Shown one piece after another: positions 3,449 to 36,599 of a DNA stretch of 42,204 bases (position 1 is the first letter of the stretch; each line of letters begins with the position of its first letter). Below the pieces are notes generated by a model. That model saw only the letters and a list, made by a program, of their open reading frames with translations. It made no database searches and had not been told where the DNA came from. The DNA comes from a virus (taxonomy: Duplodnaviria > Caudoviricetes): the IMG/VR virus record IMGVR_UViG_3300039216_000097, positions 1-42,204 of that record; one strand, given 5' to 3'. The position numbers were made by a program, and so were the translations under genes.

Positions 3449-4135
3449 ATGAAAATTCATCCGATCATTTTTAGCAGCGCAATGGAGCGCGCCATCTTGG
3501 AAAACCGAAAGACGCAAACCCGGCGCGTTATAACTGCCGCAAACAGCACAGTAGATGGTTGGATATGGAACAGCGTTCGGTTCTCATCGCTTGACCTGGC
3601 TAATCCTAAGCTGGCGGAGGATTGCAGCTACCGGAGCAGTTGCGGATGTTTAAAATATGCGTCCAGTTCCGAAGACGATGACCCCACTATTGGGCATCGC
3701 ATCCGTTCTCGCTGGTGCGTGGGAGACTTGCTCTGGGTGCGGGAAAGCATCGCAGTCAACGCCATGAACTATGCAGCCATGAAGACCATGAAAATAGCTT
3801 TTGATCCTCTTGGAATATGGTATTTGGCAGATGGAACCAAACCCAGCTGGTGTGACAAAACCCTGACCGCCCGCTTTATGCCCGGATGGGCTAGCCGCAT
3901 CACGTTGAAGATCACCGAAGTCCGAGTGCAACGTTTGCAGAAGATAAGCGAGAGCGACGTAATGGACAAAGGCGCCGGGGCGACCGGACCATCGCACGAA
4001 GAGTGGGATGGAGATCCTGACCAATATCAGAAGCGTTTCCGAGAATTGTGGGATTCCATCAACTCCAAGCGTGGGTTAGATTGGGTCACAAATCCTTGGG
4101 TGTGGGCGATCAGCTTCGAGCGGGAACAAGCATGA
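3449..4135 (+). CDS. ASCH/PUA-like phage protein
   Basis: PIIFS..M.RAIL..RKTQTRR, GD.LWVRE, MP.WASRITL.IT.VRV.RLQ.IS and NPWVW.I.F motifs. Confidence 0.8.
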   Translation: MKIHPIIFSSAMERAILENRKTQTRRVITAANSTVDGWIWNSVRFSSLDLANPKLAEDCSYRSSCGCLKYASSSEDDDPTIGHRIRSRWCVGDLLWVRESIAVNAMNYAAMKTMKIAFDPLGIWYLADGTKPSWCDKTLTARFMPGWASRITLKITEVRVQRLQKISESDVMDKGAGATGPSHEEWDGDPDQYQKRFRELWDSINSKRGLDWVTNPWVWAISFEREQA

Positions 4136-4437
4136 CGCCCGAGCAGATAGAGCAGGATGTCATCTTTTTGCGCAGCCAGGTGCAGCGGCTAAGCCGTCTC
4201 ATCGATGCACTGGAATCTTCACCTCTACTGATTCACGCGGTGACTGCGCCCGAACCCGAGCCGGAGCCGGAAACGTTCTGCGAGATTGAGATTCGCAGCC
4301 TTGCAGAGCTTGAAAAAGAAGCGATCTTAAATGCTCGTAAAATATTTGGAAAGAACAGTTACAGCGCGTGCGCGGCGCTGGGCATCGGTCATTCAACCTT
4401 TTATCGCAAATTGAGAGCATATGAGGTGCGCAAATGA
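4132..4437 (+). CDS. Fis-type (HTH_8) DNA-binding protein
   Basis: SLAELEKEAI.NA....G.N...A..ALGIG.STFYRKL; ATGA overlap with the upstream gene. Confidence 0.8.
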   Translation: MTPEQIEQDVIFLRSQVQRLSRLIDALESSPLLIHAVTAPEPEPEPETFCEIEIRSLAELEKEAILNARKIFGKNSYSACAALGIGHSTFYRKLRAYEVRK

Positions 4438-4607
4438 AACTTGCAGAACTCATTCTTGAAGTCTACGAGAAAACACACTGGCCTCCAGAAGAGATCAAAG
4501 CCATTGTTTTGAAAAATTGGCCGCATCGCCAAGACTTCACGCCTACGCAAGCAAAACTTGTTATTGGCCTTATCAAACTCAAAGAAAAAGTTTTGCGAAA
4601 TAAATAG
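4434..4607 (+). CDS. 57-aa hypothetical protein (not in the ORF track)
   Basis: ATGA overlap and GAGGTG RBS; translates as MKLAELILEVYEKTHWPPEEIKAIVLKNWP...KVLRNK. Confidence 0.6.
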   Translation: MKLAELILEVYEKTHWPPEEIKAIVLKNWPHRQDFTPTQAKLVIGLIKLKEKVLRNK

Positions 4608-4711
4608 CAAAGGTCTGAAAGAATTTGTTGGCTTTGTTTTTTGATGCGAATCTACGAAATTTCATAGTTTCAATTCAAACTGTGATACGATTTTACCCGA
4701 GGAGGTTTGCC

Positions 4712-5095
4712 ATGGTCATGTCGATCCCAACTCTATGCCCCACGGCTTTCCCCTGCCGTGCTTGCGGTTCCCCGAGTGCTTTTGGGAGCAGATATTGTTC
4801 TCCTTGTTTGCGCGCTATCTCGGCTCGGGAGCGGGATGTTAGCTTTTCGGATCACCCGCGTTTGACGAAACCCGTTATTGACGCTTCCCGCGCCCTCACG
4901 CTCCGGTCAAACGTCCGCGCCGCCGATCTCCCGCCTGAGGCCTTTGAAACGATTGAGGAACAACTTGATCGATATAGAGCCATTGTTCAAATTGCTCACA
5001 GTTGGACCGAGACCGGATTGACCAGAAATCCAGAGGATGTTGCGTGGTGCAACCCACAAGCACCCTTCGACTTTACCAACCCGGCAAGGATCTGA
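4712..5095 (+). CDS. Hypothetical protein with N-terminal C4 zinc finger
   Basis: AGGAGGT RBS before ATG 4712; CRAC...CSPC. Confidence 0.65.
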   Translation: MVMSIPTLCPTAFPCRACGSPSAFGSRYCSPCLRAISARERDVSFSDHPRLTKPVIDASRALTLRSNVRAADLPPEAFETIEEQLDRYRAIVQIAHSWTETGLTRNPEDVAWCNPQAPFDFTNPARI

Positions 5096-5130
5096 GGGGT
5101 TATGCTAAACTCTCTAACGGGAGGAAGCCA

Positions 5131-5406
5131 ATGTCTTGGAGCATCTCACTATCAGGTGGAAAGCAACAGGTGCAGAATGAATTGCGCAATGCTGCCATTG
5201 AAATCAATCACGCCATGGACGCTCTTGATCGCGCCTCTGGCCCTCTCGTCAACGTGTCAGTCAGCGGCTCGTCGTATGCGAGTCCTGCCGACTCAAACGG
5301 TAACAGCAACAATGGAACCAGCGCATCTTTCCACGTCGGAAGCTATGCTCCTGAACCACCGCCCGCACCATTGGAAAATATGGTCACAGAAGCCGTTTCC
5401 TTGTAA
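5131..5406 (+). CDS. Hypothetical protein
   Basis: GGGAGG RBS before ATG 5131; starts MSWSISLSG. Confidence 0.65.
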   Translation: MSWSISLSGGKQQVQNELRNAAIEINHAMDALDRASGPLVNVSVSGSSYASPADSNGNSNNGTSASFHVGSYAPEPPPAPLENMVTEAVSL

Positions 5407-5432
5407 CCGCAAAACTCACCGATCATGCATCC

Positions 5433-5474
5433 TATGGCGCCGCCGCAGATCCACTGTAACGGCGCCATATTTCT
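5433..5474 (+). terminator. Probable intrinsic terminator at the convergence of the two transcription units
   Basis: TATGGCGCCG (5433-5442) pairs with CGGCGCCATA (5460-5469), followed by a short T run. Confidence 0.5.
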
Positions 5475-8271
5475 ACCGACGCAGCGGCAACCCCTTCGCC
5501 CGTGTCTGTTCTTTCTTTTTCAGTTTTGCCATCTCCACCAGGCTACGCCGCGCGATCGCGGTAGCGTCGGCGCCCGCTGAACGCATCTTTTCCAAGATGT
5601 CCTGCAGCTTCAAATAGTCGGGCTTGACGCTCTCCATCACCCAGGTGTTATAAGCGTAGGCCAACATATCGTAGAGATCGTCCAGTTCGTCCCCATGGAT
5701 CTTCTTCACCGCGTGACGGTCGTCGATCACCCGCGTTTGCACTGAGTTGAAGGTCTTGCGCATTGCCGTGGTCAGCACAATGTGAAAGTTGCTCAATCCG
5801 GTGTATAGCACCTGAGCATTGTCTGCCGGGTTCTTGTGCCCGTAAATCGCTGGCAGACCGTACTCCTGAAATACTTCAGCCATCTGCTCAAAATTGCTCT
5901 TGCCGGTGTCGTGGTGCTGATCCATGGCGGAGTCCATGCACACAAAAAGGTAACGCGGCCGTTCCTCGCCCATTTTCGGTTTAAGCCAGGTCTCGCAGAT
6001 TTTCTTGGCAAAATCCACCGCGCCCATCTTGCGCTCGACAATCTCTCCGGTCCCGTAGATGCGGCCATTCTCGTCCACGCTAAACCGCCCGGCGGCCGCC
6101 GCCGAGCTGCCAAAGCCAAAATCGATGCTGATGAAGTGGTTCCACCACCACTGATCGTTGATCGATGGGTAAGGGACCATCCATTCGGGCCGCATAAACC
6201 CAAAGTAAAGGCTCGCCGCGTTACACCAGCACCCATGGAGCAGTTGCATCTGGATCTCTGGCGTCTGCGAAAGCAGTTTGTTGACCTTGCCCGCGCCATA
6301 AAGCGGGTTGTCGGTCACCGCAGCCGGAAAGAAGGCTGTGGTCATGTGGACCAATTCGGCCCGCGACGGAGGCCACTTCCAACTTGATCCTTGGTACACG
6401 CGCCCTGACCAAACCGAGGAATTCGGGTCGTTGTCTCGTTCGGTCGCCGGAAAATGCAGTGGGCATTTATTGCGAAGAAACACAGCCATCTGCCAGCCAT
6501 GCCCCACACCGCCAGGGTTTGAAGTCAACCGCATCCTGCCCCGCAACCTTGGATCGGTGGGCGCCAGCCAGGGAAGGATCGAACGCACCCGGCGCTCCGG
6601 CTGCAATCCACTTTCGTCGATTCCGACCCAACTGCGGAGATTGCCGCGGTAGCGGCCCAGATCTTTGTCTTGTGCCAGGTAGCCAAACCGAATGCGCGCG
6701 CCGCCCTTCGAGCGCACCGCCTTGCGCGTTTGCTCGTCAAAAATGGGAAACTCCCACTGGCCGCCACCCGAGCGCTGTTTGTACTGCGCTCCTACCGACA
6801 GACAGAGCTTCTCCAAGCGGTCGGCAATCTGATCCATCTCACCGAGGCTTTCGCGCAGCAGCAGGCCGCGGAATGTGGGAATGTAGTATTCCTGCACCGC
6901 ATCGCCCACCAGAAAGTCGGTGTTATGAGTCGGAATCAGTTGCCGACCAGCCAGGTATAAATGCGTAGGCGAATCCACCGCAATGCAGCGCATTGGACGG
7001 TCTAGAACCTTCTCGACTGAAACAATAAACCGCCATCTCTGGCACCCTCGTATCTTGCTCTTGATCCGGCAGGACTTTCGTTTCAGTCTAAAAACTTGCA
7101 AAGAATCCGTCCAACTCACACGCCACTTTGGGCCGCAATCTCGCCCATAGAGTGTAGCGCGGCCCTCGCGCATCGTGGCTTTTAGTCCCAACCCCAACGC
7201 AAGAGCATAAACACCATCAGCTAACTCGCGATTGGTGGACGTGAATTCGGCTTTGCCATCTAGTCCGCAGTCGCCATCTGTATCCATCAAGCCCTGCAGC
7301 AATGCAAGTCGCTGTTCTTTCGAAGCGCGCAAATAGATCGCCGGGATATGCTTGTGGAAGAGGAGACCATGCTCGCGCGCAAGAGTCTTCCACTTCCAAA
7401 TACCCCAACTGTGCTTGTGACTTGGGTGGTGGACTACTTTGAATCCATCAGCGCGAATATAGTCCGCGATCTCGGCATCCTCAGATGTATAGCGCCCGCT
7501 GTCATGACTTCCATCTCCAAGCCAAACTCCCAATGTGTAGGGCGGCAAGGGAAGTTTGATTTCGCTGGTTTCCAAAGCCTCTGCGACCCTAATCGAATGA
7601 TTGGCGGCATCGCGCTTCACGCGTAATGTTTGGAGGATTTCCAGCGTGTTTCGAATCTGTCCGCGTGGCGGCTCTTCATAAATATACTTGCGATCACGAT
7701 TGAGCATTGTCACGCTGGCTTGAACACCAGGCTTTCGAGGATTGTCAATCGCGCGGCTCGGACGTTTGGCGCGCCGGTGCGCTTTTCTTTCTTCTGTCCG
7801 CGTTGCTTGAGCGTAACGCTCGGCAACAGTTGCCGTAAACCACCGATGCTCCCGATCGGCCACCAGTTCCGAGCCATCGTCGAAAGTTAACCGATAGGAA
7901 TCACCTATCTCAATTGGACTGATATAGGTTACTTGAGTCGGGTGGCCCGTCTCATCGAAAAGAGTATCGCCCACTTTTACTTCGCGAACTGTCGTCCATC
8001 CTCGTGACGTTGCAAGCGGCGTATCGAGGTCTAAACGCTTGCCACCTCCGCTCTGGCCGCCGAACAGCAGCATCTCCGCCAGCGAACACAGTGCCGCCTG
8101 CTGCGGTGAATCGCCAAGAGGGGATGGAAGAGGCCACCAGCACGGGTCAACGCCGGGCGGTGGTGGCACCCAGGCAGGAAAGTTGCGTGGGATGGTGAGG
8201 TTCGCCGGCTCAATCAGCATCGCAGGCGACGGCGGCGCCCAGGCCAGCGTCGGAATGTGCGCGGTGATCAC
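5473..8271 (-). CDS. terL: Terminase large subunit, intein-containing
   Basis: Walker A GGQSGGGK|T split by the intein, Walker B VGIDE, coupling motif LTSNPGG, nuclease motifs ISIDFG and DDLYDMLAY. Confidence 0.93.
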   Translation of the reverse strand: MITAHIPTLAWAPPSPAMLIEPANLTIPRNFPAWVPPPPGVDPCWWPLPSPLGDSPQQAALCSLAEMLLFGGQSGGGKRLDLDTPLATSRGWTTVREVKVGDTLFDETGHPTQVTYISPIEIGDSYRLTFDDGSELVADREHRWFTATVAERYAQATRTEERKAHRRAKRPSRAIDNPRKPGVQASVTMLNRDRKYIYEEPPRGQIRNTLEILQTLRVKRDAANHSIRVAEALETSEIKLPLPPYTLGVWLGDGSHDSGRYTSEDAEIADYIRADGFKVVHHPSHKHSWGIWKWKTLAREHGLLFHKHIPAIYLRASKEQRLALLQGLMDTDGDCGLDGKAEFTSTNRELADGVYALALGLGLKATMREGRATLYGRDCGPKWRVSWTDSLQVFRLKRKSCRIKSKIRGCQRWRFIVSVEKVLDRPMRCIAVDSPTHLYLAGRQLIPTHNTDFLVGDAVQEYYIPTFRGLLLRESLGEMDQIADRLEKLCLSVGAQYKQRSGGGQWEFPIFDEQTRKAVRSKGGARIRFGYLAQDKDLGRYRGNLRSWVGIDESGLQPERRVRSILPWLAPTDPRLRGRMRLTSNPGGVGHGWQMAVFLRNKCPLHFPATERDNDPNSSVWSGRVYQGSSWKWPPSRAELVHMTTAFFPAAVTDNPLYGAGKVNKLLSQTPEIQMQLLHGCWCNAASLYFGFMRPEWMVPYPSINDQWWWNHFISIDFGFGSSAAAAGRFSVDENGRIYGTGEIVERKMGAVDFAKKICETWLKPKMGEERPRYLFVCMDSAMDQHHDTGKSNFEQMAEVFQEYGLPAIYGHKNPADNAQVLYTGLSNFHIVLTTAMRKTFNSVQTRVIDDRHAVKKIHGDELDDLYDMLAYAYNTWVMESVKPDYLKLQDILEKMRSAGADATAIARRSLVEMAKLKKKEQTRAKGLPLRR
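6922..8037 (-). mobile_element. 372-aa class 3 intein with LAGLIDADG homing endonuclease
   Basis: Begins RLDLDTPL, ends IPTHN with +1 Thr. W in block B (EHRW), C in block F (MRCIAV), T in block G. Endonuclease motifs LGVWLGDGS and LQGLMDTDG. Confidence 0.9.
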
Positions 8272-8329
8272 AGCCCACCCATAGATGAAGGTTTATCGCC
8301 AAACCAAGGAAAAAATGCGTTTAAATATG

Positions 8330-9022
8330 TCATCCAATCTGCAACTTTCCCGCCTTACGGCTTGGTGAAGAAGCCGGAGCCAACGCTGGCGCGGGCTGGT
8401 TTGTCAGTTTCCTAACTCGCTGGCGTATTGTCTCGGCGTCTACCGAATTATCTGGTTCGCTGACCGGCTGTTCTTGCGCCAAGACAGATGTTGGACCTGA
8501 TGAATGGGAGCTTTCAGCTGATGAAGAATCTTCTGAACTCTGGCCTCCAACCTCCGCCTCTTGCTCCGCTGGGATGATCGGCGCCGCGGCAACGCCCACG
8601 GGGATAAACGCCTGGTAAAACGGCGCGGTGTTCGTCACGATCCCGTTGCCAGCCGGCTCCAGCAACTTGGTTGCCCCGGCCTGAATGCGCCCAGTCACAA
8701 TGTAGCCCAGTTGGATCGCCTCTTTCTTCAGCGACCCTTTTTCTTCTTTGATGACCTTGATCAGTTCTCCATCCAAAAAAGCGTTCGTCAGGTTTTCAGT
8801 CTCCACCTGCTGCCGAGCGCGCTCGTGGCGCACAATGTCGTCTTGCCGCTCGATCTCCTCTTGCACCTGAATCAGATGAAAGGTGCGCACCGCGGCATTT
8901 TTTGCGATGCCGGCCTTTTCAGCGGCCTTGTAAATATCGCGGTACTTGCGAAAAAGCGTGGCGAACTTCTCCTGTTCGCGCGTCAGCGGCTCTTCTTCGA
9001 TGTGTGGGCCTTTCCTGGGCAT
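8330..9022 (-). CDS. Putative terminase small subunit
   Basis: LT.EQEKFA...D.YKAA.KAG N-terminal HTH pattern; immediately upstream of terL; start taken at ATG 9022. Confidence 0.65.
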   Translation of the reverse strand: MPRKGPHIEEEPLTREQEKFATLFRKYRDIYKAAEKAGIAKNAAVRTFHLIQVQEEIERQDDIVRHERARQQVETENLTNAFLDGELIKVIKEEKGSLKKEAIQLGYIVTGRIQAGATKLLEPAGNGIVTNTAPFYQAFIPVGVAAAPIIPAEQEAEVGGQSSEDSSSAESSHSSGPTSVLAQEQPVSEPDNSVDAETIRQRVRKLTNQPAPALAPASSPSRKAGKLQIG

Positions 9023-9053
9023 TGCCGGGCCTTCCCGTAAAACAATTCTCAGT

Positions 9054-9575
9054 TCACAGTTTGCAGTTATGAGACGGGGGCAGCACTTGAGCTTGGAATG
9101 TCGGGCGCGGGGGCGCATATCCTCCGAATTTATCTCGGTAGTAATCATCGAGCCGCGCAGTCTTGCCGCCGCCGGATGAACCATAAAGAAAATCCACTTT
9201 AGGGCTGCATCCGTACAGCGTGCGTGGGTGCGGATCTGCTGAAATAGGATTGCCCAAGTCAATGCCCTTCATTGACGCGCGATCAATGCCGACATAGGTC
9301 GTCTTATCGCCTTTGTCGCCACCACGATCGAACTGTAAACCGTTAAGCCACAATGGCTCTGGCTCGGTGGCCCATTCGCCCGTGTACATTGTTTTGAACG
9401 CATCGCCTTTGTCGCCATCACGAGCAAACTGTAAATCGTTAAGCCACCTCTCGCGTGCTGTCTCCGCAAAGAAAGGGTGCATCGCCTTGTGCTTCGGCGG
9501 ATCACCCGCCAGCAGCAATTCGACCCCAACCACAGGCCGAAACAGAATTTCGCCTTGCCGTCTGCCAAACATCAT
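9054..9575 (-). CDS. Hypothetical protein with internal repeat and terminase-like motif fragments
   Basis: AAGGGAAGG RBS; WLN.LQF.R.GDKGD twice; YTGEW, YVGID and FLYGSSGGGKT motifs. Confidence 0.6.
   Translation of the reverse strand: MMFGRRQGEILFRPVVGVELLLAGDPPKHKAMHPFFAETARERWLNDLQFARDGDKGDAFKTMYTGEWATEPEPLWLNGLQFDRGGDKGDKTTYVGIDRASMKGIDLGNPISADPHPRTLYGCSPKVDFLYGSSGGGKTARLDDYYRDKFGGYAPPRPTFQAQVLPPSHNCKL
9306..9447 (-). repeat. 46-bp imperfect direct repeat (9306-9351 and 9402-9447)
   Basis: ATCGCCTTTGTCGCCA.CACGA...AACTGTAAA.CGTTAAGCCAC occurs twice, 96 bp apart. Confidence 0.85.
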
Positions 9576-9579
9576 TGTT

Positions 9580-11718
9580 CTACCTTCCCTTCTCGCCTTG
9601 CCTGTGTGCTGCGCCGGCGTCGCGCAGCGCCTTAAGACCACCGATGAGCTTTCCGGTGTTCTCTTGCGCCTGCACAGCGCGGTCGTCAAGCAACTTTACC
9701 ATTTTCGCATCTTTCCGGTCTGTCACGGGAAGCGCTTTGCCTATAAATTGCTGAGTCCATGCCTCAATCGCGGATCGGCCTTCGCCTTTAGGATCATCCG
9801 AAATCTTTGCGCTCAAAATGCGCACGTCCTTGCCCTCGGCGATCCACCGCTTCACCGTGCTCAACGCACTGTCAGGATTGTCAACGCCAATCGGATCCCC
9901 AATCTTTTCCAACCCCTCAAAACCGTGATATTCAGCCAGGGTTCCGTCGAGGTCGCTGCCATACCAGCTACTTTCAGAGTCCACCTCGGGCACAGTCACC
10001 CTCGTCAGTTCTTCCGGGCGAACATTGTTCGCGATCTTGCCATCCGCCAGCCGCACCCGCGCCCGCGCCGGCTGCCCATTGGCTGGATTGAAGTAGCGCA
10101 CCACCCCGGCCCGGCCATCGGCAAACTTGACCACTTCGCCTGGCTTCAGCGCGATCTGCGATGCGCCACTGCCGAACGAAACCGATCCTTGATTTCTGCG
10201 CGCGTCGCTTGCGCCTGGCTCTTGTAGGGCATCGCTACCTCCTTTCATTCGTACATCGGTTTGCCCACCGTTTCGGTCAATGATTGAGATCGTATCTACC
10301 GGAAACTCCGAGCCCTCCATCTCGCCGCGGCCCTTGTATTCTTCCGCGCGCTGCGGATCAATGTAGGCGATCGTTGCGTGAGGTTTGTAGCTGTCAAAAC
10401 TCGACGGCTCAAAATCTCCATGCTTCTGAATTCCATCGTTCATTCGCTCAAGTTCAGGCGACTGCACCTGAGCATGTACCACCGCCGCACCATTTGAATA
10501 CGGCGTAGGCGAAAATACGTCCGTCTTGCCCAGCCGCGCAGTGAACGTCTTTTGCGCTTCAATGAACTTGCGGATGCCATCTGTATTGTCGCCACGAATC
10601 CCATACCGCACTGTCACATGGTTTCCGACGTCGCCGACATCCTTGCCATCCCCGGCCAGGTGCTCGTCTGGAATCTTGTCGCGAAACGTATCCAGGGCCT
10701 CGGCCGCATCCGACCCGTCGGGGATATTCGCCTGGGTATTGCCAAACTTGTATTTCGTCTCACCGGCAGGCGGTTTCGTCTCATTTTTATGCGTTTTGAC
10801 CTCGTTTTTATGCGCCGCCGCAGCCCTGAACCGATCTCGCGTGGCCTCTTTATGCACGGCGGTAATCTCCGCACTCAGCCGCGAGGCCTCCGCCGTGTCG
10901 CCCCGCGCTTCCGCCTTCTTCTGCTTTTCGTAGAGCGGCTCCGTCTGTTTCAGCGCCTCGACCTGAGCCTTCGTACCCACCTGGATCTCAGAAACTTGAT
11001 TTGCCGCTCCCGCGCCGCCTGTGCGCACGGCATACTGATCCATATTCAAGCCATTTGAATCGATTTTCTCTTTCCGCTCCACCGGCAGCCGCGTCTCGAT
11101 ATGCTCTCGGAGCCGCTCAAGCGCCGAACGTGAGTTCGCCGAAATCCGCGCTCCCAAATTATCGATGTTGGTTTCTGGAGGCTTGCCACGCTCCGTTTTC
11201 GTCTGCTGCGACTCAGCGGACTTTACCCGCGATCCCTCCAGCTTGGCCCCAGGCACTGCGGAAACCACCGCTCCGGCCATAGCCTCCAAAACCGGCTGCT
11301 GTAGCTTCGCTGAGTTTCGGATCGCCGCCGCGTCGTTGCTCCCCTGCTCCACCGGCCTCTGTGCAGCCTCCGCGGTCGTTCCAGATGGCTTCTCTCCGCG
11401 CCCCGCGCGGCTGTTTTTAGGCACATACAGGTCCGCGTAAGTTCCCAAATCTGGCGTGTGCCCAGCGTCGCGCCGCACAATCGGCAGCCCTGTCTCTTCA
11501 TCGATCGCAGTCACTTTTCCGGCCGGGTGGCTCAGCACTTTGCCCGTAGTTTTAGCGGACCGTTGGCCGCCGTTCGCCGGCAGCTCTCGCAGCATCGCCC
11601 CGGCCGGAATTCCCTTCGGCGGCGTCAGCAAGCGCAACAACGCGCCAGCCGGCAAATTCTTCGGCAGATTAAGCCATTCGGGCGCAGCGGGTGAAGATAA
11701 AGCGGTGGCCATCGTCAT
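9580..11718 (-). CDS. Multidomain 'polyvalent' protein: RelA/SpoT-like NTase + 2H phosphoesterase + SH3/KOW-like + HAD phosphatase
   Basis: RVKS..S...K, D.LGARI and EIQV.T; HVT (H367) and HAT (H447); LKPGEVV....GRAGVV; DLDGTL and LLDDRA. Confidence 0.8.
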   Translation of the reverse strand: MTMATALSSPAAPEWLNLPKNLPAGALLRLLTPPKGIPAGAMLRELPANGGQRSAKTTGKVLSHPAGKVTAIDEETGLPIVRRDAGHTPDLGTYADLYVPKNSRAGRGEKPSGTTAEAAQRPVEQGSNDAAAIRNSAKLQQPVLEAMAGAVVSAVPGAKLEGSRVKSAESQQTKTERGKPPETNIDNLGARISANSRSALERLREHIETRLPVERKEKIDSNGLNMDQYAVRTGGAGAANQVSEIQVGTKAQVEALKQTEPLYEKQKKAEARGDTAEASRLSAEITAVHKEATRDRFRAAAAHKNEVKTHKNETKPPAGETKYKFGNTQANIPDGSDAAEALDTFRDKIPDEHLAGDGKDVGDVGNHVTVRYGIRGDNTDGIRKFIEAQKTFTARLGKTDVFSPTPYSNGAAVVHAQVQSPELERMNDGIQKHGDFEPSSFDSYKPHATIAYIDPQRAEEYKGRGEMEGSEFPVDTISIIDRNGGQTDVRMKGGSDALQEPGASDARRNQGSVSFGSGASQIALKPGEVVKFADGRAGVVRYFNPANGQPARARVRLADGKIANNVRPEELTRVTVPEVDSESSWYGSDLDGTLAEYHGFEGLEKIGDPIGVDNPDSALSTVKRWIAEGKDVRILSAKISDDPKGEGRSAIEAWTQQFIGKALPVTDRKDAKMVKLLDDRAVQAQENTGKLIGGLKALRDAGAAHRQGEKGR

Positions 11719-11734
11719 AGATCTCCATCTTTCC

Positions 11735-11743
11735 TGTTATACT
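11735..11743 (+). promoter_or_regulatory. Putative extended -10 promoter for the antisense membrane-protein gene
   Basis: TGTTATACT (TGn-TATACT) lies 27 bp upstream of ATG 11771. Confidence 0.45.
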
Positions 11744-11770
11744 AATCCTGCAACACTGGAGGCTCACCCC

Positions 11771-12031
11771 ATGTCCCTCTTTCTCAGCATCGTCGGCATT
11801 CTCTTTGCAGCCGTTTGCTTGTTCTTTCTGCTCATCGGTATCGTAGAGCACTTTTCCAAATCCCTCGCCAATCAGCTTTTTGTCTACATCCCCGTTTCGC
11901 TTCTCGCGCTTCCCTTTGTCGTTGGCCTTGTCTGGGCGACTGGTGTTGCCATCTGCGCTTACCCTCTCATCTTCATCAGCGTGTCTCTTCTGCTCTTTTT
12001 TGTGCGCTCTCTCGCTTCAGATCAGAGATAG
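11771..12031 (+). CDS. 86-aa membrane protein (about 3 TM helices), moron-like
   Basis: GGAGG RBS; highly hydrophobic; fills the gap between two - strand genes in the opposite orientation. Confidence 0.75.
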   Translation: MSLFLSIVGILFAAVCLFFLLIGIVEHFSKSLANQLFVYIPVSLLALPFVVGLVWATGVAICAYPLIFISVSLLLFFVRSLASDQR

Positions 12032-12060
12032 CAGCTCAAGATCGGCAGTCGCGGCGCCGC

Positions 12061-15000
12061 CTATTCTCCTGTTGGGGACAAGGGGACATATTGCCCGTCC
12101 ACCACGTGCCCCAACACCGATCCATCTGGGTGCAACACCTCGTGGGTAGCGCCGGCGGGCGCTGTTAGAGACGGCTTTTGCGTCTGGTCGCCGGGCGTTG
12201 AGTTCCGATAGATCATCTTTCCAGACGAATCCCGCAGGGCAGCCACGCCGCCGTTTTGATTCACTGGCTCTGGCGGCAAAATTTCAGCGCGACCAGGGTT
12301 CAATTGCCGCATGACCTCGGCTTCTTCAACCGGATTGTGAACCTCATTAGGCTCGCTGCGCGTCACATCGCCGATAACGCCGCCGCCAGGCGGCGTTGAC
12401 ACGCCTTCGCGCTGGTCAGGTTCCTGCTGTTGCGGCATCTGCGCCTGTGCCGCCACCGGCGCCGCCTTCATGCCCCCTTTGATCGCCCCCTCGGCTGCCG
12501 CGCGCGCTGCGGTGCCCACACCGCCGGCTACGTCTCCAGCTTTCAATTGGCCAACCGCCTCGGCCGCCTCTGGAAACTTTTTTGCGAGCGCTGTGCTCAG
12601 CGGCACAGGTTCGGGATGTTCCATGAGCGCAGCCGTAGCCTCTGGATTTACCAGATGCTTGGCAATTGCCCCTTGTGCCAACGATGTGGCGATTGGGCCG
12701 GCCACCGCCCCAATTGCAGCGCCAACCGGGCCACCGGCAGCGGCCCCAACTGCGGCGCCACCGCTGCCTACCAGTGCCGGAATGCCTTTGGACGCACCCT
12801 CCAAAATGTTGCGCGCTTCGGTTGCGGGCTGCAGAACCGTTGCTGTGTTGCTCGGGTTCGAAGGCAAGTTGACCGTCCGTGAGACCTGCGCCAGATCGTC
12901 CAGGTTATTGGCCTGCTCCGGAGTCAGCACAGCGCTCAAACGCTCCTTTTCGGCTCGGTTGAACCGTGTAGCAAAGTTGCGCAGATCCACAGTTCCATTC
13001 CCCGGCGGATCAAACTGCCGCTCGATTGCCTGACGCCGCAGCATCGGAATCAGATCGGGGTCGGCCTGCGCCAATGTGCGCACTTCTTCCGGCGTCAATT
13101 TCATCGCTCCGGTGCTGGGAGTAAAAATGGCGTCGGCAGCTTTTGTGCCATCGGCGTCTGTCGCCAAAATGTTTTTCAGTGCGCCAGGCTTGTCGTACAC
13201 CGTAGGCCTCATAGCTTTTTCTGCTAGATCGTTTACGGCGGCCAGCCGATCAGATCCAAGCAACTCGGTTGCGGTTTCCTGATTCACCTTCCCAGCTCGC
13301 GTTTTGAATCCCGGCAGATCAATCGATCCGCTATCGGTGGGGTCCATCAAATGCCCCACGAACTGCCGCTGCTGCTGATCGACCAAACTGCGATATTGCC
13401 GCCTGTCTCCGGCTTTTAGATCGGGCTTTTCCGCCAGCCGCTGTTCGTCCAGGTCGGCCATCGCCTCACGGAACTGACGCGCTGCCACCGGCTTAAGATT
13501 TTCCAGAGTTTTGGCAACGGTCTTTGTTTCCGGATTGCGCAAAACAGAGAAAAATGGGCTTTGCGGGTTGTCGTACATCGACTTCATCCGCTCCCAATCT
13601 GCATTTCCTGCTCGAAACTTTGAAATCTGTCCATGGCTCATGCCCTCTTCGTTGCGCGGATTGGTCAGGGAGTTGTCAAGCGACTCAACCATCTGTTTCA
13701 GCCAGCCCTCAGCCCGGCTGCCTACAATATCAGGCGAGCGATACTGATTCATTAGGTCGCTGCGCAGCTTGGCCACATTGGCCGGAGAACTTACCGGCGC
13801 CTGCGGTGCGGCGGCACTCTTATCCCCGCTGAACGCCGCCTGCCCAGGCGCTTTTTCCGGGGAAAACTGCGCGTTCCACCGCTCCCTCATCTCTGGGCTG
13901 GCCTTGGGAAGAATCTGTTCAAGCGTGGTGCGGATTCCTGGCATTTTGAGCGATTCGGGGTTGTCTTTGTAGTAATCGAACTCCCCATCTAAAATTTCGT
14001 CCGCAGTCTCCTGCACCCCCTTCAAATCGACCTTTGCATCCTTCGATCCCAGCGCATCGGTCAGTTTCTGCGCGGCGCGTGTATACATGTGCTTTTGATG
14101 CTTGTTCAGCGCATCCTGCGCCGCCGCACCAAACTCCTCACCTGTCTGCTGCTCTAGGTGGATCGAGTCCAGCAGATCCTGCGCAGCCTTCGTCTGCCCC
14201 GGCACATCGGCCAGCGCATCCCGATGCGCGGCCAGACGATCGTGAACCAAACTGCCAAACTGCTCGCGTCCCATCGTCTGGGGATGCGCGTCGCTGGCTA
14301 TTTTGGCCGCTTGCTCATGCAGTGCCTGCACATTGGCCGTGTTGTTGTTCTCAAAATGTCGCGCTCCAAACAGAGACTTTTCGGTTGCGGTCTTTGCCCC
14401 TCCCGTCGTTGCCCCGCGCGCGGTGGAGGCCTGCGCGGCATCCAGATTGACACCCATATCGTTTGCTGCTCTCCATCGATCCATCGGCGAGAGCTGCCCA
14501 GGCACAATCGGTCTGTCGAGGTCCGCGCGCTTGGCGCGCATCTCCTGCAATCTTCCCTTTCCAGCCTCTTTGAACGCACTTAGAACTTTGGGAGCCGCCT
14601 CGGTAGCTCCAGCCACTGCCAGGTTCCCAACCGCCGTGCCCGCTGCGCCGGCATAGTTCCCCGCCCCGGCCTGCTGCGCCATCTCGTCTTCCGTGCCCAC
14701 CACCCAGGGGCCAACCATCGGCACAGCCGCGCCCACCGTGTGCCGGGCGGCCTCCAATCCGTGCGCGACAGCGTCCGGACCTCCCTGCGCCGCCAGGCGA
14801 GCTTCTTCCTCCGCTTGCTGCTCCATCTGCACCTGAGGCTCAATCAACCGCGTCAGAGGTCCGCCAGCCGCAGCCAGCGGCGTGTTCCAAGCCGGATGTG
14901 TTCGCTCGAATTCATTTGCACGCGGATCAAAAAGCGCTGGGATGCCTTTCACTGCTCCCATAATGGCATCGCCTGCGCTCTCTAAAAATCCTGGCGGCTC

Positions 15001-15342
15001 CGGTGTGTGCTGATAGATTGGATACCCGGCCTCGTCGCGGCCCAAATACTTTGGTCCAGTGCCCCAAATAGCCTGACCGTTGGCATTGGCCCCGGTGATG
15101 ACCGGTTCCTGGCCGGCGGGATACTCGCTGCCGTCGTTCTGAACAAAACGGCCGCCATGCGCCTGGGCTTCGACTGCCTGATCCACCGGAATCCAATGCT
15201 GATCGCCGCTCGGGGCCTCGACCCGCAAAGCGATCTTGCCGCCATGCAGGTGAGCCTCAGCCACTTGTTCCGGAGGGATCATATAGACCTGACCATCCGG
15301 AGCCAGGATCGGAATTGCAGTCGATTTTGTGTTATTCGCCAT
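12061..15342 (-). CDS. Large internal virion / DNA ejection protein
   Basis: 1093 aa, Ala/Gly/Gln-rich and helical with a glycine-zipper segment; third of three genes following the tail hub, as in podoviruses. Confidence 0.65.
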   Translation of the reverse strand: MANNTKSTAIPILAPDGQVYMIPPEQVAEAHLHGGKIALRVEAPSGDQHWIPVDQAVEAQAHGGRFVQNDGSEYPAGQEPVITGANANGQAIWGTGPKYLGRDEAGYPIYQHTPEPPGFLESAGDAIMGAVKGIPALFDPRANEFERTHPAWNTPLAAAGGPLTRLIEPQVQMEQQAEEEARLAAQGGPDAVAHGLEAARHTVGAAVPMVGPWVVGTEDEMAQQAGAGNYAGAAGTAVGNLAVAGATEAAPKVLSAFKEAGKGRLQEMRAKRADLDRPIVPGQLSPMDRWRAANDMGVNLDAAQASTARGATTGGAKTATEKSLFGARHFENNNTANVQALHEQAAKIASDAHPQTMGREQFGSLVHDRLAAHRDALADVPGQTKAAQDLLDSIHLEQQTGEEFGAAAQDALNKHQKHMYTRAAQKLTDALGSKDAKVDLKGVQETADEILDGEFDYYKDNPESLKMPGIRTTLEQILPKASPEMRERWNAQFSPEKAPGQAAFSGDKSAAAPQAPVSSPANVAKLRSDLMNQYRSPDIVGSRAEGWLKQMVESLDNSLTNPRNEEGMSHGQISKFRAGNADWERMKSMYDNPQSPFFSVLRNPETKTVAKTLENLKPVAARQFREAMADLDEQRLAEKPDLKAGDRRQYRSLVDQQQRQFVGHLMDPTDSGSIDLPGFKTRAGKVNQETATELLGSDRLAAVNDLAEKAMRPTVYDKPGALKNILATDADGTKAADAIFTPSTGAMKLTPEEVRTLAQADPDLIPMLRRQAIERQFDPPGNGTVDLRNFATRFNRAEKERLSAVLTPEQANNLDDLAQVSRTVNLPSNPSNTATVLQPATEARNILEGASKGIPALVGSGGAAVGAAAGGPVGAAIGAVAGPIATSLAQGAIAKHLVNPEATAALMEHPEPVPLSTALAKKFPEAAEAVGQLKAGDVAGGVGTAARAAAEGAIKGGMKAAPVAAQAQMPQQQEPDQREGVSTPPGGGVIGDVTRSEPNEVHNPVEEAEVMRQLNPGRAEILPPEPVNQNGGVAALRDSSGKMIYRNSTPGDQTQKPSLTAPAGATHEVLHPDGSVLGHVVDGQYVPLSPTGE

Positions 15343-23795: not shown

Positions 23796-24875
23796 CTACT
23801 GATGCACCGTCGGGCAGAGAATTTCCAGGGTCATCTCGCCATTCAAAATGGGGCTGACCCCGCTGCCGGAGTTCGCCAACGCTGGAACCGTGATAGCCGT
23901 GGCAGCCGAAATGGTGACTGGACCCGTGGTTGCCAAGGCGCGGCCATTCAGCACGCCGCCGCCCAAGGTTATTCCACTTACCGCCAGAATGTTGCCATTC
24001 ACGGTAGAGGTCGCCACAGACGTGAAGGCGCTCCCAGCCACAAAAACGACATTCGCAGCCTGGGCGCCGTTGACCAAAGCAATCGTCTGCCCGCTGGCCA
24101 GGTCGATGGTTGATCCGGCCACAAACACAAACGTGGCGTTGGGGTTGCCCTGCGCATCCAAGATGATGCCGGTAGGCATCGTCAAACCAGCCGAGCCCAC
24201 ATAAACGCCGGGCGTATATGTCGAAGCGCTCGACCCGTTGCCGCCGGTGCTGAGGTTGCTCAAGCCAGAGAGCGTGGCGGTCAATCCCTGATAATACGTG
24301 ATCGCAGCCGTCAGCGCGGTCTGCGCGGCCTGTGCGCCTGCATTATTCACCGCTGCCGGCGCGGTCAAAACGCCGGGTGGGAAACCCGTCTCGGTCGCCG
24401 TGGCATACGATCCGATGTTGCCGCCGGTGACAACCGTATTCCCGCTGTTGGTGATGCCCGCCGAGGCCAGCACCGCAAAGGCCGCGGCCACCCCCAACTG
24501 TGTTGCAACCGGGGAGGGGGTGGGTAATACCGAGGCGTTCGAATAGGGCGTGTTGGCGGCAAATTCAACTCCTCCAGGATTGAACATCCGCAGATAGAAG
24601 TTCGTCTGCGCGGCCAATCCGCTGCCGGTTACCACGCGCTGGATCTGCCCATAGTAGCCGTCCAGCCACTCGTTCAAAATGTACGGCGTCACGGGCGGCG
24701 GCGCCTGTGTCGGGTTGTTGAGCGGAACCTGCACCAGCACTTGCGGGTCTGCAATGTTTGTCAGCGGTATCAGGTCACCCCCCGCCGGATAGATCCCGGA
24801 GAAGTTGACCTTCACGATGTTCCGATCCGGATTGGTGGCCGGACTCGTCTGTAACAACGTCAATCCCAGACTCAT
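23796..24875 (-). CDS. Putative virion protein containing an ice-binding-like DUF3494 beta-solenoid domain
   Basis: LG.AA.FAVLA..GITNSG.TVV.G.IG, TPGVY, ILDAQGNPNA.FVF, L.NGAQA.NV.F..GS, GNILA...ITL, LNGRALA.TG.VT. AAGGAG RBS. No signal peptide. Confidence 0.88.
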   Translation of the reverse strand: MSLGLTLLQTSPATNPDRNIVKVNFSGIYPAGGDLIPLTNIADPQVLVQVPLNNPTQAPPPVTPYILNEWLDGYYGQIQRVVTGSGLAAQTNFYLRMFNPGGVEFAANTPYSNASVLPTPSPVATQLGVAAAFAVLASAGITNSGNTVVTGGNIGSYATATETGFPPGVLTAPAAVNNAGAQAAQTALTAAITYYQGLTATLSGLSNLSTGGNGSSASTYTPGVYVGSAGLTMPTGIILDAQGNPNATFVFVAGSTIDLASGQTIALVNGAQAANVVFVAGSAFTSVATSTVNGNILAVSGITLGGGVLNGRALATTGPVTISAATAITVPALANSGSGVSPILNGEMTLEILCPTVHQ

Positions 24876-36137: not shown

Positions 36138-36581
36138 CTAACGCCTCCGGTTCCATGGCTTGAATTCCAGCATCTCCGCCACTGAAGGGAAACTCCCTTG
36201 AAACTGCATCGCCCGATCATCAATCAGCAAGTGCGACGGCGGCTTCAGCAGCGGGAAGCGAATTTTTCCCAACTTGTGTTTCGGGAACCCCCACTTCACC
36301 AGCCAGCGCTTCATTGCCGCCCGCGCACCCCAGTACCGAGCCCGCGAACTGAAAATGCAAACGTCAAACTCGCGAAAACGCGGCGCCATAGTGCAAACGG
36401 AGTCACCATCTTCAACCAGCGAATCGAGCCACTCGATGGCGCCCGGCACTGGCGGGTCCGGCAGCGTCGTAGCACCCTTCCAGCCAGAGGTGTAACTATG
36501 CAGCACTCCGTCAAAATCAATGGCCAAGACCGGCGTGCGGGCCGGTAAATCGTTGCTAATCAGGTTTTGCCGCGCCATCAT
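36138..36581 (-). CDS. HAD-superfamily phosphatase/nucleotidase-like protein
   Basis: IDFDGVL (motif I), IFSSR (II), KP (III) and IDDRA (IV). Confidence 0.85.
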   Translation of the reverse strand: MMARQNLISNDLPARTPVLAIDFDGVLHSYTSGWKGATTLPDPPVPGAIEWLDSLVEDGDSVCTMAPRFREFDVCIFSSRARYWGARAAMKRWLVKWGFPKHKLGKIRFPLLKPPSHLLIDDRAMQFQGSFPSVAEMLEFKPWNRRR

Positions 36582-36599
36582 TATCCCCAATTCAGGTGC

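Follow-up and report, generated by a model that had tools for sequence, protein, structure and literature searches.

A predicted short polyvalent protein from a peat and permafrost phage, with a RelA/SpoT-fold domain that appears to keep its ATP site and to have a rebuilt acceptor site

The virus record IMGVR_UViG_3300039216_000097, analysed here over its whole length of 42,204 nucleotides (the window), carries on its minus strand an open reading frame (ORF) at 9580-11718 that encodes a protein of 712 amino acids (aa). Judged from its ORF, its homologs, and an AlphaFold model, this appears to be a short, four-module phage polyvalent protein, one of a class known since 2017. It joins a predicted RelA/SpoT-fold pyrophosphokinase domain (here, the synthetase), a 2H phosphoesterase, an SH3-like barrel, and a minimal HAD phosphatase. 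What is new here, the comparisons suggest, is the clade to which the synthetase belongs, which would keep its ATP site with a rebuilt acceptor site. The protein is, on balance, probably packaged with ejection proteins, and would act on host nucleotides at entry through its 2H, HAD, and synthetase domains.

The original prediction, made from the DNA letters, had listed this ORF and its motifs without giving a strand. The ORF and every listed motif are present, on the minus strand; the plus frame is interrupted by stops. Because homologs open with MATT, the start may be Met3 (at 11712) rather than Met1. An AlphaFold model of the whole protein, made with a 60-sequence alignment, has a mean predicted local distance difference test score (pLDDT) of 82.9 and a predicted template modelling score (pTM) of 0.43, and consists of well-predicted domains connected by disordered linkers. 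Folds were compared using VIA against 48,161 PDB representatives. This comparison returned small alarmone synthetase (SAS), 2H, KOW/Tudor, and T4 Pnkp matches for the four domains, and the four fold assignments made earlier hold. A search of PDB sequences with the whole protein or its alignment gave three chance-level matches (E 0.65-0.89) or none. Against the relative L020, the ratio of nonsynonymous to synonymous substitution rates (dN/dS) is 0.17, 0.085, 0.19, and 0.073 across the four domains, which indicates purifying selection on all of them.

The synthetase (aa 119-292; 10843-11364, minus strand) is predicted from fold and conservation. With aa 129-309, VIA matched SAS1 (5dec; Z 15.1, root-mean-square deviation (rmsd) 2.9, 171 residues aligned) and, further, RelP (Z 14.4), Tas1 (Z 13.0), and CapRel (Z 12.0). 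The Pfam RelA_SpoT match is weak (E 0.019 on the domain slice); among 13 aligned members, 10 match this family at E<=0.1, the best at 1.5e-6. The synthetase motifs are R164-V-K166-S..S170..K174, D186-x-L-G-A-R191, E244-I-Q246, and L-Y263-E-K. The donor site of FaRel2 is built from R64, K66, S70, K74, R77, D90, G93, R95, E145, and Q147 (PMC11782079). Paired by motif and spacing rather than by structural superposition, this set maps in full (10/10) onto R164, K166, S170, K174, R177, D186, G189, R191, E244, and Q246.

The acceptor side is another matter. In FaRel2, Y128 stacks the acceptor, and the replacement Y128F impairs catalysis (PMC11782079). Here, the counterpart of Y128 is L224, and the Syn5 His is replaced by E260. 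The G-loop motif is indeed replaced, as had been noticed, by N222-GLNMD-Q228. In the Syn3 motif, SxH marks ppGpp synthetases and GxN marks ppApp synthetases (PMC12226406); the loop found here (L224, N-M-D-Q) fits neither signature and has no G-loop Tyr.

A full-library search returned 4,592 matches at E<=0.001. The best 150 of these and the homologs from a further search make up a relative set of 160 proteins (P0001-P0161 minus the self-match, P0002), from which domain profiles were built. The synthetase domain is found in 77 of the 160, and R164, K166, K174, D186, E244, and Y263 are invariant in all 77. An aromatic G-loop residue occurs in 37 of these. A tree resolves three groups: 37 proteins with both the aromatic G-loop and the Syn5 His (branch support 97/90), 10 with the His only, and 30 with neither, the 712-aa protein being in the last. 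Within this 30-member clade, N222, N240, S243, Q266, and K267 are kept in 30/30 and Q228 in 29/30. The dN/dS of the synthetase domain is 0.15-0.17.

In our reading, the domain is an active pyrophosphokinase that uses ATP, has changed its acceptor, likely to one other than GDP or GTP, and has low self-toxicity. Such an enzyme fits better than a dead decoy, because the donor site is intact and the clade has invariant residues of its own. The original prediction had offered a decoy, a sensor, or a non-canonical transferase; the donor site, the dN/dS, and the clade's own invariants favour the transferase, and make the decoy less likely. The net charge of the domain is negative in all three groups (medians -6, -9, and -11), a measure too crude to exclude a tRNA acceptor. 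No immunity, hydrolase, or antitoxin gene is conserved beside the synthetase in the relatives' loci, an unrecognised antitoxin being possible; the ORF downstream (173 aa) drew blanks in family searches and is not kept in relatives. In L016, L017, and L018, the small terminase comes directly after the synthetase gene. Apk2 toxins, in contrast, are always followed by a tis1-like gene (PMC10083569). Scans with Pfam and PHROG gave no MuF match in the window.

The 2H phosphoesterase (aa 321-493; 10240-10758, minus strand) is assigned from Pfam, VIA, and its HxT motifs. The two motifs, H367-V-T369 and H447-A-T449, are separated by 80 aa, as first described, and none of the 136 near-complete 2H domains among the relatives has lost either one. 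Pfam 2_5_RNA_ligase2 matches at E 2.3e-8. With aa 317-497, VIA gave drCPDase (Z 14.6), LigT (14.1), Usb1 (13.7), Acb1 (12.2), and PDE-9 (11.2). The description of the domain as Acb1-like therefore stands as to the 2H fold and its HxT tetrad; it does not stand as Acb1-specific, since LigT, CPDase, and Usb1 score equally or higher. Two homologs do reach the curated cut-off of the Pfam Acb1 family, L005 with 31.2 bits and P0026 with 27.0. Conserved aromatic residues (Y372, F441, Y444, and Y452) are found in the domain, for which the fold comparison gave ranges and no residue pairing. Specificity varies widely among viral 2H enzymes (Doherty 2025, bioRxiv 2025.08.21.671373).

The barrel that follows (aa 526-575; 9994-10143, minus strand) is of the SH3/KOW/Tudor type and is predicted, from VIA and a joint model, to pack on the HAD. 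In the whole-protein model (aa 520-575), VIA gave KOW/Tudor at Z 7.7; in a model of the SH3 and HAD domains folded alone, it gave Tudor and NusG-KOW at Z 8.2 (rmsd 1.1-2.0, 49-55 residues aligned). The SH3/KOW barrel that had been proposed is borne out at Z about 8, to the level of fold class only, because such Z values are middling.

The HAD (aa 585-692; 9643-9966, minus strand) is predicted from VIA and motifs to be a minimal phosphatase of the T4 Pnkp type. Its motifs are complete, in agreement with the earlier reading: D589-x-D591, S636, K669, and D678-D679. The best fold match of aa 581-687 is the T4 Pnkp phosphatase 5uj0 (Z 9.5, rmsd 2.9, 102 residues aligned). The joint SH3 and HAD model has pLDDT 92 and pTM 0.89, and its top VIA matches are unchanged (Z 9.5 and 8.2); because this model is confident, the two domains are predicted to form a single unit. 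The HAD domain has no Pfam match, its profile found three chance matches among PDB sequences, and Foldseek found nothing at E<=0.001 for the joint model, so that its placement comes from VIA. All HAD motifs are present in 51 of 62 family members; 58 of the 62 have Arg where the 712-aa protein has K638. The family consists mostly of stand-alone phage proteins of 100-250 aa (60 loci), some of them in non-structural regions. The window itself holds a second, free HAD of this family at 36138-36590 (minus strand), with DxDG, S-R, and DDRA motifs and matches to PHROG 1238/23773; it is 25% identical to the fused HAD.

The four modules do not always travel together. Of the 77 synthetase-bearing relatives, 59 have the 2H, 53 the HAD, and 52 the SH3 barrel, and 29 are at least 1500 aa long. 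The order also varies, the 2H being first in P0018 and last in P0024 and P0025. A relative that is 63-68% identical (L001, 589 aa) is without almost the entire 2H. Two prophage remnants (L093 and L094) have synthetase and SH3 only, in the same slot. These two remnants (L093 in G760:C14, L094 in G596:C1) are reduced prophage-like elements that share flanking host genes (an oxidoreductase and a sugar kinase) and retain a terminase and the synthetase-SH3 gene of 275-339 aa, in genomes from the family of G001. Because relatives drop or reorder domains, and because 11 of 62 HADs are degenerate, the modules are not an obligatory chain; most likely, they would work in parallel as a toolkit, not as an obligate pathway.

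The same cassette is found inside giant proteins of about 1,500-5,000 aa, in a slot between ejection-type genes and the terminase; in related contigs, the modules lie within proteins of 1,474-4,155 aa (27 loci, several of them duplicates). This slot, behind homologs of the window genes 17306/15343 and/or before the terminase, is kept in L001, L005, L011, L012, L013, L016, L017, L018, and L020, and also in L093 and L094. The giants also carry SNF2/methyltransferase (MTase), ART-PolyVal, ddrB-ParB, His-phosphatase, and LPD1 domains, and in 6 of 11 scanned (P0022, P0024-P0027, and P0031) a GGDEF-like domain stands beside the 2H or the synthetase. Giants with GGDEF thus pair two nucleotide-synthesising folds with a phosphodiesterase. 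Cultured-phage records matching the 2H or the HAD only number 20, and none matched a synthetase-SH3 query. In the cultured Acidobacteriota myophage Tunturi_5, the same 2H and HAD families are part of two ART-PolyVal proteins encoded among the head and tail genes; the main text of the Tunturi phage paper (PMC11924767) does not contain the term "mass spectrometry." At L006, gene starts are repeated (3528-5258 and 4899-9799), and 9800-10837 reads SH3-2H-SH3 with near-identical SH3 copies, which is either a tandem duplication or an assembly artefact.

Packaging of the 712-aa protein in the virion is likely, in view of its slot, its N-terminal peptide, and its fusion partners. The peptide occurs twice, at aa 19-30 and 34-45 (11584-11664, minus strand), and is predicted, from shuffles and relatives, to be a packaging or docking tag. 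This duplication, which the original prediction had pointed out, is real, as not one of 500 shuffles scores as high for repeats. An N-terminal duplication is found in 43 of 71 giant relatives versus 6 of 213 internal windows, and even the prophage remnant L093, a minimal form, has a duplicated peptide there. At the other end, the synthetase-SH3 protein P0073 terminates in a short motif common to ejection-type proteins. This ending and the N-terminal duplications would fit loading with ejection proteins.

Upstream of the ORF lie genes for proteins of 306, 657, and 1093 aa, in an order that we take to be typical of P22-like ejection genes. The last encodes a putative ejection protein (12061-15342, minus strand), which has an N-terminal duplication too and, at its C-terminus, a short conserved module; a language-model lead connects it to a cluster that is 63% P22 gp16 (score 0.93, rank 12). 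The original prediction had placed the ORF after the ejection genes. The gp16-like lead agrees with this, but family libraries are blank and an antisense ORF lies between. That ORF (11771-12031, plus strand) encodes 86 aa of hydrophobic character without a family match and is preceded by TATACT and by GGAGG, a ribosome site. Similar antisense hydrophobic ORFs of 80-93 aa occupy the same place in L001 (6219-6534, minus strand) and L020 (9650-10006, minus strand), a position that presumably resembles that of superinfection-exclusion genes.

The type of the upstream C-terminal module also seems to be paired with the type of the next protein's N-terminal peptide, at 13 hand-picked loci (in the window, 12064-12198 and 11584-11664, both minus strand; elsewhere, L012, L017, L018, L005, L016, L010, and L003). 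The pairing is confounded by relatedness, and one type of C-terminal motif precedes two different peptides; a daisy-chain loading of internal virion proteins is possible. Following the peptide, the 712-aa protein has a conserved beta-hairpin motif (aa 62-85; 11464-11535, minus strand), recognised from homologs and the model and found mostly in short cassette proteins. Both this hairpin and the SH3 barrel were considered as homologs of the upstream ejection-type C-terminal modules and rejected, their scores lying in the shuffled range.

What might such a protein do? Expressed late, it would enter the virion by way of its N-terminal tag and leave it together with the DNA. Its 2H might then cleave cyclic oligonucleotide defence signals, as Acb1 does (PMC13577500), and the SH3-capped HAD, with the catalytic set of T4 Pnkp, might strip the resulting or other terminal phosphates. 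The synthetase, to go by its conservation, would move pyrophosphate from ATP to an acceptor that is probably not a guanine nucleotide. The "co-ejected anti-defence polyprotein" first proposed is still the best reading; what it loses is its novelty as a class, already described in 2017, and its specifically Acb1 character. A relay in which the HAD follows the 2H, also proposed at the outset, is possible where both are present but is not obligate, given L001 without its 2H, L093 and L094, and the 11 of 62 degenerate HADs. A bolder joint reading, which we advance only tentatively and hold to be doubtful as a whole, makes the clade a new RelA/SpoT-fold enzyme that is injected from the virion and puts pyrophosphate on a non-canonical acceptor, which could be a defence signal, the product of cleaving one, another metabolite, or a protein hydroxyl. 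Here, together with the 2H and the SH3-HAD, the enzyme would destroy or mask host signals before phage genes are expressed, and the peptide would dock on the last ejection protein.

Several results weigh against packaging and action on nucleotides at entry. All counts of relatives are drawn from matches chosen by their similarity to the 712-aa protein, and all four domains are present in just 27 of the 77 synthetase-bearing proteins (16 shorter than 1000 aa, 11 longer), the remainder having incomplete sets. Among 15 short relatives checked, 5 score low (11-17) for the N-terminal duplication. The "ejection" label of the upstream genes comes from gene order and one language-model lead, the 1093-aa protein having no Pfam, PHROG, or NCBIfam match; further, the antisense gene cuts the ORF from the upstream operon, and separate expression is therefore possible. 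As for the enzymes, 11 of the 62 HADs are without a catalytic motif. The Pfam Acb1 family (PF23474) scores 18.7 bits on the whole protein and 22.4 on the slice, with the curated cut-off at 27, and two structural groups of viral 2H enzymes were inactive on a panel of 18 messengers (bioRxiv 2025.08.21.671373). The acceptor-stacking Tyr is absent in 40 of 77 synthetases, and swaps of Syn motifs inactivated Apk2 (PMC12226406). Since loss of the Tyr impairs FaRel2, the domain might be a dead one that binds ATP.

These points leave room for other explanations. One is that the protein heals RNA ends: host anti-phage RNases leave 2',3'-cyclic phosphates, which the 2H would open, and the HAD would clear the phosphate to allow repair of the tRNA or mRNA ends; the synthetase would be incidental, or would cap 3' ends. 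This would suit an HAD whose best match, T4 Pnkp, is an RNA end-healing enzyme (PMC3592404), a 2H that matches drCPDase, LigT, and Usb1 better than Acb1, and the weak match to TIGR02258, an RNA 2',3'-cyclic phosphodiesterase (E 0.0018). We consider it unlikely. Scanning 35 + 13 ORFs and slices of the window turned up neither an RNA ligase nor a 5'-kinase, in a contig that may be incomplete and has no terminal repeat; Iyer 2017 never encountered polyvalent 2H domains together with RNA ligases (PMC5512222); and partners with GGDEF and RelA folds point to soluble nucleotides.

It is more improbable still that the clade's synthetase has no catalytic activity or very little and binds ATP as a decoy or sensor, leaving the 2H and the HAD as the sole enzymes. 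The absence of both the G-loop aromatic and the Syn5 His throughout the clade speaks for this, as do the effect of Y128F in FaRel2 and the loci themselves, where no conserved immunity or hydrolase gene comes next and, unlike Apk2, a small terminase may follow. Yet none of the 77 proteins departs from the Mg-binding D186 and E244, the residues specific to the clade suggest a re-specified pocket, and the dN/dS is low. A still slimmer chance is given to an unpackaged, moron-like or late gene acting in the lysogen or the infected cell; with the antisense membrane gene, for example, it might serve superinfection or dormancy through alarmones. The antisense gene is upstream in all three close phages, synthetase-SH3 forms persist in the two prophage remnants, and stand-alone HADs of the family occur in non-structural regions, all of which such a role would accommodate. 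It would accommodate less well an orientation and slot that are those of giant virion-type proteins, a duplicated peptide kept even in the minimal form, and a region (9000-12300) in which no sigma-70-like promoter was found.

The remainder of the neighbourhood is briefly described. Downstream, a small terminase-like gene (8330-9262, minus strand), matched through homologs, is accompanied by a large terminase gene (5473-8271, minus strand; PHROG terminase large, Pfam LAGLIDADG_3). Within the latter, about 370 aa that include a LAGLIDADG domain are inserted; the insert is missing in L001 and L020 and is likely an intein. PADLOC returned nothing for 8 proteins. The sequence of the window is present in peat and permafrost runs. 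Contigs from RNA runs cover the gene (X9, with 16 of 17 records at least 99% alike, and X17); these cannot show transcription and are not taken as support. The host is probably an acidobacterium, to go by the relatives alone: one related prophage lies within a metagenome-assembled genome (MAG) labelled Acidobacteriaceae. The synthetase profile matches 3 of 401 sampled genomes of that MAG's family; in the phylum sample, 3 of 401 match as well, one being this MAG again, another an ordinary long RSH, and the third a weak match that our own profile did not confirm. In the structural region of this peat and permafrost phage, the gene at 23796-24875 (minus strand) has an Ice-binding-like domain (PF11999, E 7.6e-33).

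Why does this matter? Polyvalent proteins are predicted to be early weapons of phages, and those met here are mostly 1,500-5,000 aa long and hard to study. The 712-aa form and its natural variants (589 aa without the 2H; about 275 aa with synthetase and SH3) make the nucleotide-acting core testable. The products of RelA/SpoT-fold enzymes characterised to date are (p)ppGpp, (p)ppApp, or modified tRNA, with a stacking Tyr described for the acceptor (PMC11782079). A clade with its ATP site kept and its acceptor site rebuilt could reveal another class of substrate, and could give a counter-defence role to a family of enzymes whose known members are mainly toxins and defence effectors. The clade would also be a starting point for learning how nucleotide-based immunity is handled by phages of peat bacteria, probably Acidobacteria.

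Among known systems, T4 Acb1 has the 2H fold and the HxT/HxT tetrad in common with the protein described here. Acb1, however, is about 140 aa long, and the 2H here is about 173 aa and sits in a multidomain chain. Acb1 also has a C-terminal lid, an aromatic cage, and an adenine-reading Glu (PMC13577500); in a comparison at the level of ranges, the lid and the Glu were not identified in the 712-aa protein. Likewise, the synthetase shares its fold and its ATP-donor residues with toxSAS, Apk1 (Tas1), FaRel2, and CapRel, and MuF-Apk2 is similarly fused to a virion domain (PMC10083569). The exported SAS of Streptomyces (8vx3) gives a weak alignment of the C-terminal motif (E 0.036). Unlike toxSAS and Apk2, the 712-aa protein has no acceptor Tyr, MuF, PAAR, or antitoxin domain, and is fused to a 2H and an HAD. 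The HAD and T4 Pnkp share the order of their DxD, Ser, Lys, and DD motifs, by which the two were paired (PMC3592404). The HAD differs in being about 108 aa long with an SH3-like barrel in front, in having no kinase domain, and in that no ligase was found. NARP3 (PMC13464706) was considered and is unrelated.

In the literature searched, which did not extend to the supplementary files of Iyer 2017 (PMC5512222) and Doherty 2025, no description of the four-domain cassette or of the synthetase clade was found. Fusions of 2H and HAD are known from phages, 13 of 75 viral 2H phosphodiesterases being fused, some to HAD (bioRxiv 2025.08.21.671373). There remain the polyvalent proteins themselves, which are DarB-like. 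Iyer 2017 named RelA/SpoT and 2H domains in this class, inferred packaging in the virion from late-gene position, and proposed that the 2H degrades defence nucleotides (PMC5512222). Spirochaete and epsilonproteobacterial phages supply its RelA/SpoT examples, and its main text does not contain the words phosphatase, SH3, KOW, or acidobacteria ("HAD" matched just the word "had"). The 712-aa protein shares with the class a set of unrelated enzymatic domains in one chain and a late-gene position near terminases, and its relatives share the repertoire of SNF2/MTase, ART-PolyVal, ParB, GGDEF, and LPD1. It differs in being short, and in being encoded by a gene separate from that of the putative ejection protein.

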